From assembly GCF_003334335.1 (NCBI RefSeq), contig NZ_QOWQ01000050.1: a stretch of DNA of 28,028 nt; one strand, 5' to 3'. This DNA comes from Escherichia coli. Its GTDB lineage: Bacteria; Pseudomonadota; Gammaproteobacteria; Enterobacterales; Enterobacteriaceae. The position numbers and the translations under genes were made by a program. The stretch's first letter is position 1. Each line of letters starts with the position of its first letter. Positions 21,639 to 21,700 of the stretch are shown piece by piece. Below the pieces are notes generated by a model, which saw only the letters and a list, made by a program, of their open reading frames with translations, was not told the DNA's origin and made no database searches.

Positions 21639-21678
21639 CTGTAAACAACATGGTCCTTGGTGGCCATGTTGTTTACAG
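21639..21678 (+). terminator. hairpin 3' of iutA (possible terminator)
   Basis: Perfect 15-bp inverted repeat ctgtaaacaacatgg (21639-21653) / ccatgttgtttacag (21664-21678) with 10-nt loop. No clear U-tract follows, so the terminator role is uncertain. Confidence 0.4.
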
Positions 21679-21700
21679 CCAGTATTGTTTACAGCCAGTA
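21669..21700 (+). repeat. perfect tandem duplication, 2 x 16 bp (ttgtttacagccagta)
   Basis: Unit at 21669-21684 repeated exactly at 21685-21700; the first unit overlaps the distal arm of the hairpin. Confidence 0.9.

Follow-up and report, generated by a model that had tools for sequence, protein, structure and literature searches.

A palindromic hairpin and a 16-bp tandem duplication at the 3' end of a chromosomal aerobactin operon of Escherichia coli

Introduction

The aerobactin genes iucABCD and iutA form one Fur-repressed transcription unit in CFT073, under the control of Fur and RyhB (PMC7157518). The present analysis concerns the 3' end of this operon in a 28,028-nt stretch of Escherichia coli DNA (contig NZ_QOWQ01000050.1 of assembly GCF_003334335.1), referred to below as the window, where a long palindromic hairpin follows the last gene, iutA, and is overlapped by an exact 16-bp tandem duplication. 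Operon mRNAs are known to carry protective stem-loops at their 3' ends, such as the stabilisers of the repetitive extragenic palindromic (REP) type and the stem-loops at ends trimmed back after Rho-dependent termination. Short tandem duplications and other insertions or deletions (indels) arise at palindromes by slippage or template switching, as described by the slipped-strand and quasipalindrome models of Streisinger and Ripley.

The explanation considered best for this locus, and fairly probable as a whole, is that of an operon-terminal hairpin acting as a weak two-way terminator, combined with a slip-born duplication that spread with its haplotype and is probably neutral. Together, the stem-loop at 21638-21679 and the small hairpin preceding it would form a conserved structure that closes the Fur-regulated iucABCD-iutA transcript at its 3' end. 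The main hairpin would most likely serve as a weak or non-canonical terminator of transcription in both directions, and might in addition hold up 3' exonucleases. What we infer in this explanation is the role as terminator or stabiliser, the slip and the neutrality; the anatomy of the locus, the fold common to both alleles, the allele counts, the derived state and the conserved hairpin are shown. The second 16-mer would have arisen by a replication copying slip beside the palindrome on one island haplotype, and the two-copy haplotype would then have spread into several E. coli backgrounds, including enteroaggregative E. coli (EAEC) 55989 and O104:H4.

Sequence and fold of the hairpin

With a repeat finder, an inverted repeat with 100% complementary arms of 16 nt was found at 21638-21653 (GCTGTAAACAACATGG) and 21664-21679 (CCATGTTGTTTACAGC), separated by a gap of 10 nt. 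RNA folding added two pairs, resulting in an 18-bp stem (21638-21655 with 21662-21679; 8 of the 18 pairs are G-C) closed by the 6-nt loop CUUGGU (CTTGGT in the DNA). An earlier note on this DNA, made from the sequence alone, had described a perfect inverted repeat of 15 bp at 21639; the repeat is real, but its arms measure 16 nt and start one base earlier. The hairpin begins 27 nt past the iutA stop codon, so that a stable G-C stem-loop stands near the last stop codon, as is looked for in a terminator. The free energy of the isolated hairpin was calculated as -28.3 kcal/mol, a 55-nt segment gave z = -5.9, and the structure folds equally on both strands. When the window was simulated 200 times with a first-order Markov model, no perfect inverted repeat of 16 nt with a gap of at most 30 nt appeared (analytic expectation 2e-4).

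The long stem contains a GC-richer core of 7 bp, CATGGTC/GGCCATG (21649-21655 and 21662-21668), followed on the plus strand by TTGTTTA (21669-21675). As read from the sequence, UAAACAA upstream of the core mirrors UUGUUUA downstream, and the core with these flanks would have the layout of an intrinsic terminator working in both directions, in which A-tract and U-tract are paired together. The core stem alone was assigned -8.0 kcal/mol. Tails were rated by T-weight, a scheme reportedly due to d'Aubenton Carafa et al. in 1990; UUGUUUA reaches 2.6 behind the core stem, though its bases are paired inside the long stem.

The main hairpin is directly adjoined by a smaller one on the plus strand (21617-21637; 9 pairs including G-U, 3-nt loop CAA, present in the minimum free energy and centroid folds), which is separated from the iutA stop codon by 5 unpaired bases. 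The operon thus ends in two neighbouring stem-loops. A shorter, 5-bp version of the first hairpin is kept in ColV plasmids.

Scanning of positions 21000-23000 against Rfam 15 with permissive E-values gave no family at gathering threshold for the main hairpin; the best sub-threshold matches were at chance level (mir-30, 21 bits with 50.2 required; ssnA, 16.8 with 37.3 required). The junction queries described below matched with a median of 1 and a maximum of 2 per genome, and no further copy was present in the window, which makes the hairpin a single-copy feature. A dispersed palindromic element, such as REP or bacterial interspersed mosaic elements, enterobacterial repetitive intergenic consensus sequences or elements resembling miniature inverted-repeat transposable elements, was rejected, as many copies per genome were not seen.

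Tandem duplication and its distribution

The 16-mer TTGTTTACAGCCAGTA is present twice on the plus strand, exactly and head to tail. Copy 1 (21669-21684) shares its first 11 nt with the 3' part of the distal hairpin arm, and copy 2 (21685-21700) is the inserted unit that is missing from one-copy alleles. Both the repeat finder and the 11-nt overlap bear out the duplication as it had been noted before. Identity at period 16 spans 33 nt, leaving a flanking microhomology of only 1 nt (T). A degenerate third unit, TAATATACAGCCTTAA (21701-21716, plus strand; 10 of 16 positions match, with TACAGCC in common), was recognized by Tandem Repeats Finder (TRF) and by alignment and already exists in one-copy alleles; with this unit included, TRF gave a copy number of 2.8. 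Exact tandem repeats of 16 nt were likewise absent from the 200 simulated windows, with an analytic expectation of 6.5e-6. Two open reading frames (ORFs) on the minus strand across the site (21597-21752 and 21673-21810) were set aside, since their frame is shifted between alleles by the 16-nt indel.

Allele counts were obtained from 5,426 complete E. coli genomes using two junction-specific queries, in each of which the 28-nt megablast seed is possible only in the intended allele; the two-copy query was 50 nt long. The one-copy junction was detected in 931 genomes and the two-copy junction in 54, i.e. in about 5% of the 985 genomes with a chromosomal-type junction. All 54 two-copy genomes matched the 50-nt query at 100% over its full length, and an assembly artefact was ruled out, because the identical allele is present in 54 independently finished genomes. 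No three-copy allele was found among the 985 genomes, so that the 16-mer is not hypervariable, in contrast to the octamer array at 23134-23190. Carriers of two copies include EAEC 55989, the O104:H4 outbreak strains 2011C-3493, C227-11 and HUSEC2011, FORC_069, UPEC-245U, and isolates from water and wildlife.

Full-length relatives of the 551-nt region are 16 nt shorter than the window. By alignment, one copy was found in three divergent chromosomal lineages (25DN, Nissle/EcN and strain 3090) and in the ColV-type plasmid pO83. The duplication is therefore derived rather than ancestral, given one copy in 931 of 985 genomes, in divergent lineages, in the plasmid type and on haplotypes 2-4 single-nucleotide polymorphisms (SNPs) away from two-copy ones. 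The comparison of iutA 3' regions that had been proposed thus separated two alleles, and two copies were not common to all relatives. The duplication is a lineage-marking indel and another instance of a well-known kind of event. At present it has very little biological importance, being a non-coding indel by which the predicted RNA structure is not disturbed. The copy state can be scored by polymerase chain reaction as a marker of one chromosomal aerobactin-island haplotype, that of EAEC 55989, the O104:H4 outbreak clone and several uropathogenic E. coli (UPEC) and environmental strains.

Age and spread of the two-copy allele

The 54 two-copy genomes were exactly the 54 top matches (at least 99.6%) to iutA plus flank, and the next matches were one-copy genomes at 99.2%, corresponding to the 16-nt gap and about 4 SNPs. 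Both alleles occur on contigs encoding an identical IutA protein, the one-copy allele for instance in CP045784.1 and CP068090.1, and the haplotypes bearing them can be just 2-4 SNPs apart; the one-copy contigs L032 and L035 differ from the two-copy contig L034 at 2-3 sites per 3.8 kb.

Downstream of the two-copy allele, three contexts were distinguished: a remnant of an insertion sequence (IS) of the IS3 type with a group II intron (O104:H4, 55989, FORC_069), sat (EcPF7, O111:H21), and iha (NMBU-W12E19, UPEC-245U, 99RCEF and the window itself). By comparison of these haplotypes, the duplication is young relative to the diversity of the island, but it is not private to this genome. The earlier description of a recent slippage or repair footprint holds in so far as the allele is derived and stands on near-identical haplotypes; a private recent event does not agree with 54 genomes in three contexts. 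One origin followed by recombination is the likely and simplest reading of these sequences.

Some further observations were made on individual carriers. In L036 (UYIS01000011.1), two copies lie about 80-100 nt past the iutA stop codon, and the second has a C-to-T change (TTGTTTACAGCTAGTA), which indicates that the duplication is old enough to have gained a substitution; an IS3-type transposase lies about 300 nt downstream. In the two-copy strain EcPF7 (L013, 599-1751), iucD is truncated by IS1 and the upstream iuc genes are missing, so that the receptor gene iutA is retained without the genes for aerobactin synthesis. The two-copy allele was also present in L023, a contig binned in a 'Bacillota' metagenome-assembled genome (MAG). 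Aerobactin DNA of E. coli or enterobacterial type occurred in L020, L022 and L023, in assemblies labelled Collinsella sp. MAG, Bacillota bacterium MAG and Chryseobacterium sp. 18061, and is most likely due to mis-binning or contamination and not to real transfer.

Conservation of the hairpin

A homologous hairpin was found at the same place in ColV-type plasmids (pO83, Klebsiella pneumoniae p1b1, E. coli E10 p1) and in an E. fergusonii plasmid. Judged from these sequences, the hairpin is older than the duplication. The lower 10 bp are paired in all three sequence types, with three pairs changed on both sides (TAAA/TTTA as opposed to ATAT/ATAT). Similarity between the plasmid and the chromosomal operon ends at the hairpin. 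A scan of species-representative genomes with the conserved iutA 3' pattern returned 6 loci, which yielded positional analogues and no further homologous hairpin; as no variant was added, the covariation test remained limited to the three sequence types.

No homologous hairpin is present behind the more distant iutA homologues; its position is taken by a terminator. Canonical terminators with a GC stem and a T-run are found within 10-20 nt past the stop codon in Cronobacter sakazakii (GGCCGC...GCGGCC followed by TTTTTT), Pantoea allii (GCCCGG...CCGGGC followed by CTGTTTTTTT) and L022. In Citrobacter and in one K. pneumoniae lineage, a GC stem without a clear T-run occupies the terminator position.

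Two side observations concern the same region. In pO83 (L005, about 3300-3355) and L012, a second long, near-perfect inverted repeat (CGACATAATCTGTAGTCAG...CTGACTACAGATTATGTCG) follows the iutA hairpin at about 40 nt and precedes IS1; the chromosomal type lacks it. In the chromosome of E. coli DG343-1 (L011, about 812-880), the left arm is interrupted by an ISL3-family element, which has destroyed the hairpin; the structure is accordingly dispensable at least in this strain.

Effect of the duplication on the predicted structure

The left arm was predicted to pair with copy 1 with a probability above 0.97 (0.98 for 21638-21679) and with copy 2 with a probability of 7e-7 (21638-21695); forcing the use of copy 2 by blocking copy 1 cost 8.7 kcal/mol. 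A structural switch in which the left arm would pair with the 11-nt repeat in copy 2 was rejected at this probability of about 1e-6. The core stem and the internal UUGUUUA are the same in both alleles, and copy 1 supplies the entire distal arm, so that the duplication alters neither the hairpin nor the U-rich stretch inside it. The sole change is 3' of the stem, where CAGUAUAAUAUAC of the one-copy allele becomes CAGUAUUGUUUAC in the two-copy allele. Because hairpin and U-rich stretch are unchanged, the folding predictions suggest that the duplication is probably neutral or nearly so.

In a simple scan, the hairpin was rated as terminator-like in the window and not in the one-copy allele L002. 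This verdict flips between alleles because the stem is extended fully before the tail is read. The suggestion of the earlier note that the duplication could alter terminator efficiency finds no backing in these results: the fold and UUGUUUA are the same in both alleles, the difference in the scan is an artefact of the scan, and a functional effect of the duplication appears unlikely.

Points against and alternative explanations

Several observations weigh against the explanation by a weak terminator and a slip-born duplication. The full stem is followed by no T-run (CAGTAT...), where a Rho-independent terminator would have about 5 or more U among 8 positions, and the T-weight of 0.3-0.5 compares with 4.3 for the Cronobacter terminator; the letters behind the stem are CAGUAUUGUU in the window (0.48) and CAGUAUAAUA in the one-copy allele (0.32). 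In the ColV and E. fergusonii plasmids, the upper, GC-richer part of the stem has decayed and the lower, AU-rich part is retained, the reverse of what conservation of a classic terminator would produce. The covariation is statistically weak, as it comes from three sequence types with effectively a single split between lineages and is attained by 24 of 500 shuffles, and it could also stem from a template-switch 'correction' of a DNA palindrome with no selection on RNA. No iutA terminator, hairpin, 3' untranslated region or mapped transcript 3' end was found in full-text literature searches. As for the slip, with a microhomology of 1 nt (T) at the boundary, simple slipped mispairing would be poorly templated. 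Finally, the SNP patterns are mosaic: the one-copy strain EC5654 falls inside the two-copy diversity and EcPF7 is recombinant, and copies may occasionally have been lost or may have arisen again.

The designation as a structured terminator is nevertheless plausible with respect to the conserved hairpin and to the canonical terminators of distant homologues at this position; the missing T-run after the full stem speaks against it. The data agree equally well with a hairpin that serves, once Rho has terminated transcription, as a barrier to 3' exonucleases. For the 3' end of the aerobactin operon, the conserved though non-canonical hairpin past iutA is a reasonable candidate.

With regard to the duplication, exact head-to-tail copies whose number varies among close relatives were found, as expected for slipped-strand events. 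A polymerase slip or relocation of the primer, promoted by stalling at the palindrome, would be the most economical origin. Slippage between pre-existing TACAGCC repeats 16 nt apart was rejected, as the predicted product (the AGTATAATA spacer twice) differs from the observed one, and a GCCA microhomology was rejected as the origin owing to its offset of 15 nt and not 16.

The duplication might strengthen termination, by turning the A-rich sequence behind the stem (CAGUAUAAUAUAC) into the more U-rich CAGUAUUGUUUAC with a second UUGUUUA, and so reduce read-through. The scan result (terminator-like in the window with the tail CAGTATTGTT, not in the one-copy allele) and the rise in T-weight past the full stem from 0.32 to 0.48 agree with this. 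Both tails are, however, very poor in comparison with the value of 4.3 in Cronobacter, the stem-proximal CAG is common to both alleles, and the scan flips only through full extension of the stem ahead of tail reading. If the core stem and the internal UUGUUUA terminate, the RNA would be released before copy 2 is transcribed. Strengthened termination is regarded as unlikely.

Alternatively, the palindrome could act as DNA, namely as a binding site for protein, a recombination site or a cruciform at the edge of the aerobactin module, and the paired changes would then reflect template-switch repair between the arms. This is in line with perfect 16-nt arms that fold equally well on either strand, with a homology between plasmid and chromosomal modules that stops at the hairpin, and with ColV-type arms that each hold the self-complementary TGATATCA, compatible with arm-to-arm templating. 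It is considered improbable, as pairing and not arm sequence is conserved between lineages, which speaks against a sequence-specific binding site; moreover, no curated RNA family or element is matched, the palindrome is single-copy per genome, and plain terminators stand at the same spot in distant homologues.

Very improbable is the inactivation of an outward promoter inside the hairpin. The promoter-like pair TGGCCA (21661-21666) and TATAAT (21699-21704) on the plus strand is a consensus match only; its spacing is 16 nt in the one-copy allele and 32 nt in the window, and a promoter-like match (10/12) was accordingly obtained in the one-copy allele L002 (3262-3289) and none in the window. Chance alone would give such matches (2.4 per 1.6 kb on average in shuffles), the -35 element would be buried in a very stable hairpin, in its loop and one arm, and no nearby downstream gene on the plus strand obviously needs this promoter: sat is provided with a promoter-like site of its own, and the distance to iha in the window is 3.4 kb. 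It is highly doubtful, too, that the 16-bp insertion is adaptive in the island lineage of 55989 and O104:H4, where it would split the -35/-10 pair, add a U-rich stretch and insulate iha, sat and IS remnants; if true, it would shield downstream island genes from iron-regulated read-through or outward transcription.

That the two copies are the target-site duplication of a mobile element since lost is scarcely credible, even with IS remnants surrounding the region and an ISL3 element in the hairpin of the L011 lineage, as the copies abut without any intervening base in the window as well as in each of the 54 two-copy genomes, 16 bp lie beyond the target duplications (2-14 bp) known for the IS families found at the locus, and loss of a bacterial IS normally takes one repeat copy away and does not leave both.

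Neighbouring features of the window

The gene iutA, encoding the ferric aerobactin receptor, extends from its annotated-type start at 19416 to 21611 on the plus strand and is the last gene of iucABCD-iutA; it was identified from the ORF list, the RefSeq annotation of identical DNA and the translation. The identical IutA protein is matched by the Pfam families Plug and TonB_dep_Rec_b-barrel, and the aerobactin operon of the window is of the chromosomal type.

Further downstream, the segment of about 50 nt at 21842-21892 was matched at 98-100% by hundreds of plasmids and chromosomes from E. coli and Klebsiella; most of the matches lie in unannotated DNA next to fragments of DDE or IS3-family transposases, and the segment looks like an IS end or remnant. 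Homology to O104:H4 and FORC_069 ends at 21970, from where the window follows the genomes with the iha context. An exact octamer array, TTTCGTAG in 7.1 copies (23134-23190; TRF score 114), is located about 1.9 kb upstream of an iha-like ORF (25074-27164). Its copy number differs from the window in near-identical genomes, by one additional unit in NMBU-W12E19 and nine in UPEC-245U; in contrast to the 16-mer, the octamer array behaves as a true variable-number repeat.

Comparison with known systems

The 3' end of the pColV-type aerobactin operon (pO83_CORR, K. pneumoniae p1b1) has a homologous hairpin that is equally far from the iutA stop codon. As differences, it carries the corresponding segment once, its arms read ATAT where the chromosomal type has TAAA/TTTA, it contains an A/A mismatch and a loop of 8 nt, and beyond the hairpin the sequence is unrelated and leads into IS1.

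With the two-way Rho-independent terminators of the iutA homologues of C. sakazakii, P. allii and L022, the hairpin shares a stem-loop within about 30 nt or less of the last stop codon of the operon, a GC-richer core between TAAACAA and TTGTTTA, and symmetry on both strands. Unlike in these terminators, the U-stretch is interrupted (UUGUUUA) and fully paired in an unusually long stem of 18 bp with no T-run after it, and the GC core has been lost from the plasmid variants, whose AU-rich lower stem persists. Like the protective stem-loops at the 3' ends of operon mRNAs, the hairpin is long and stable (-28 kcal/mol), is placed at the end of a polycistronic mRNA and has no good U-tract; in contrast to those of the REP type, it occurs once per genome and belongs to no dispersed repeat family. 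The duplication resembles the slippage events of Streisinger and Ripley in that an exact duplication overlaps a palindrome arm and is present in one or two copies among near-identical haplotypes, and it departs from them in its flanking microhomology of only 1 nt.
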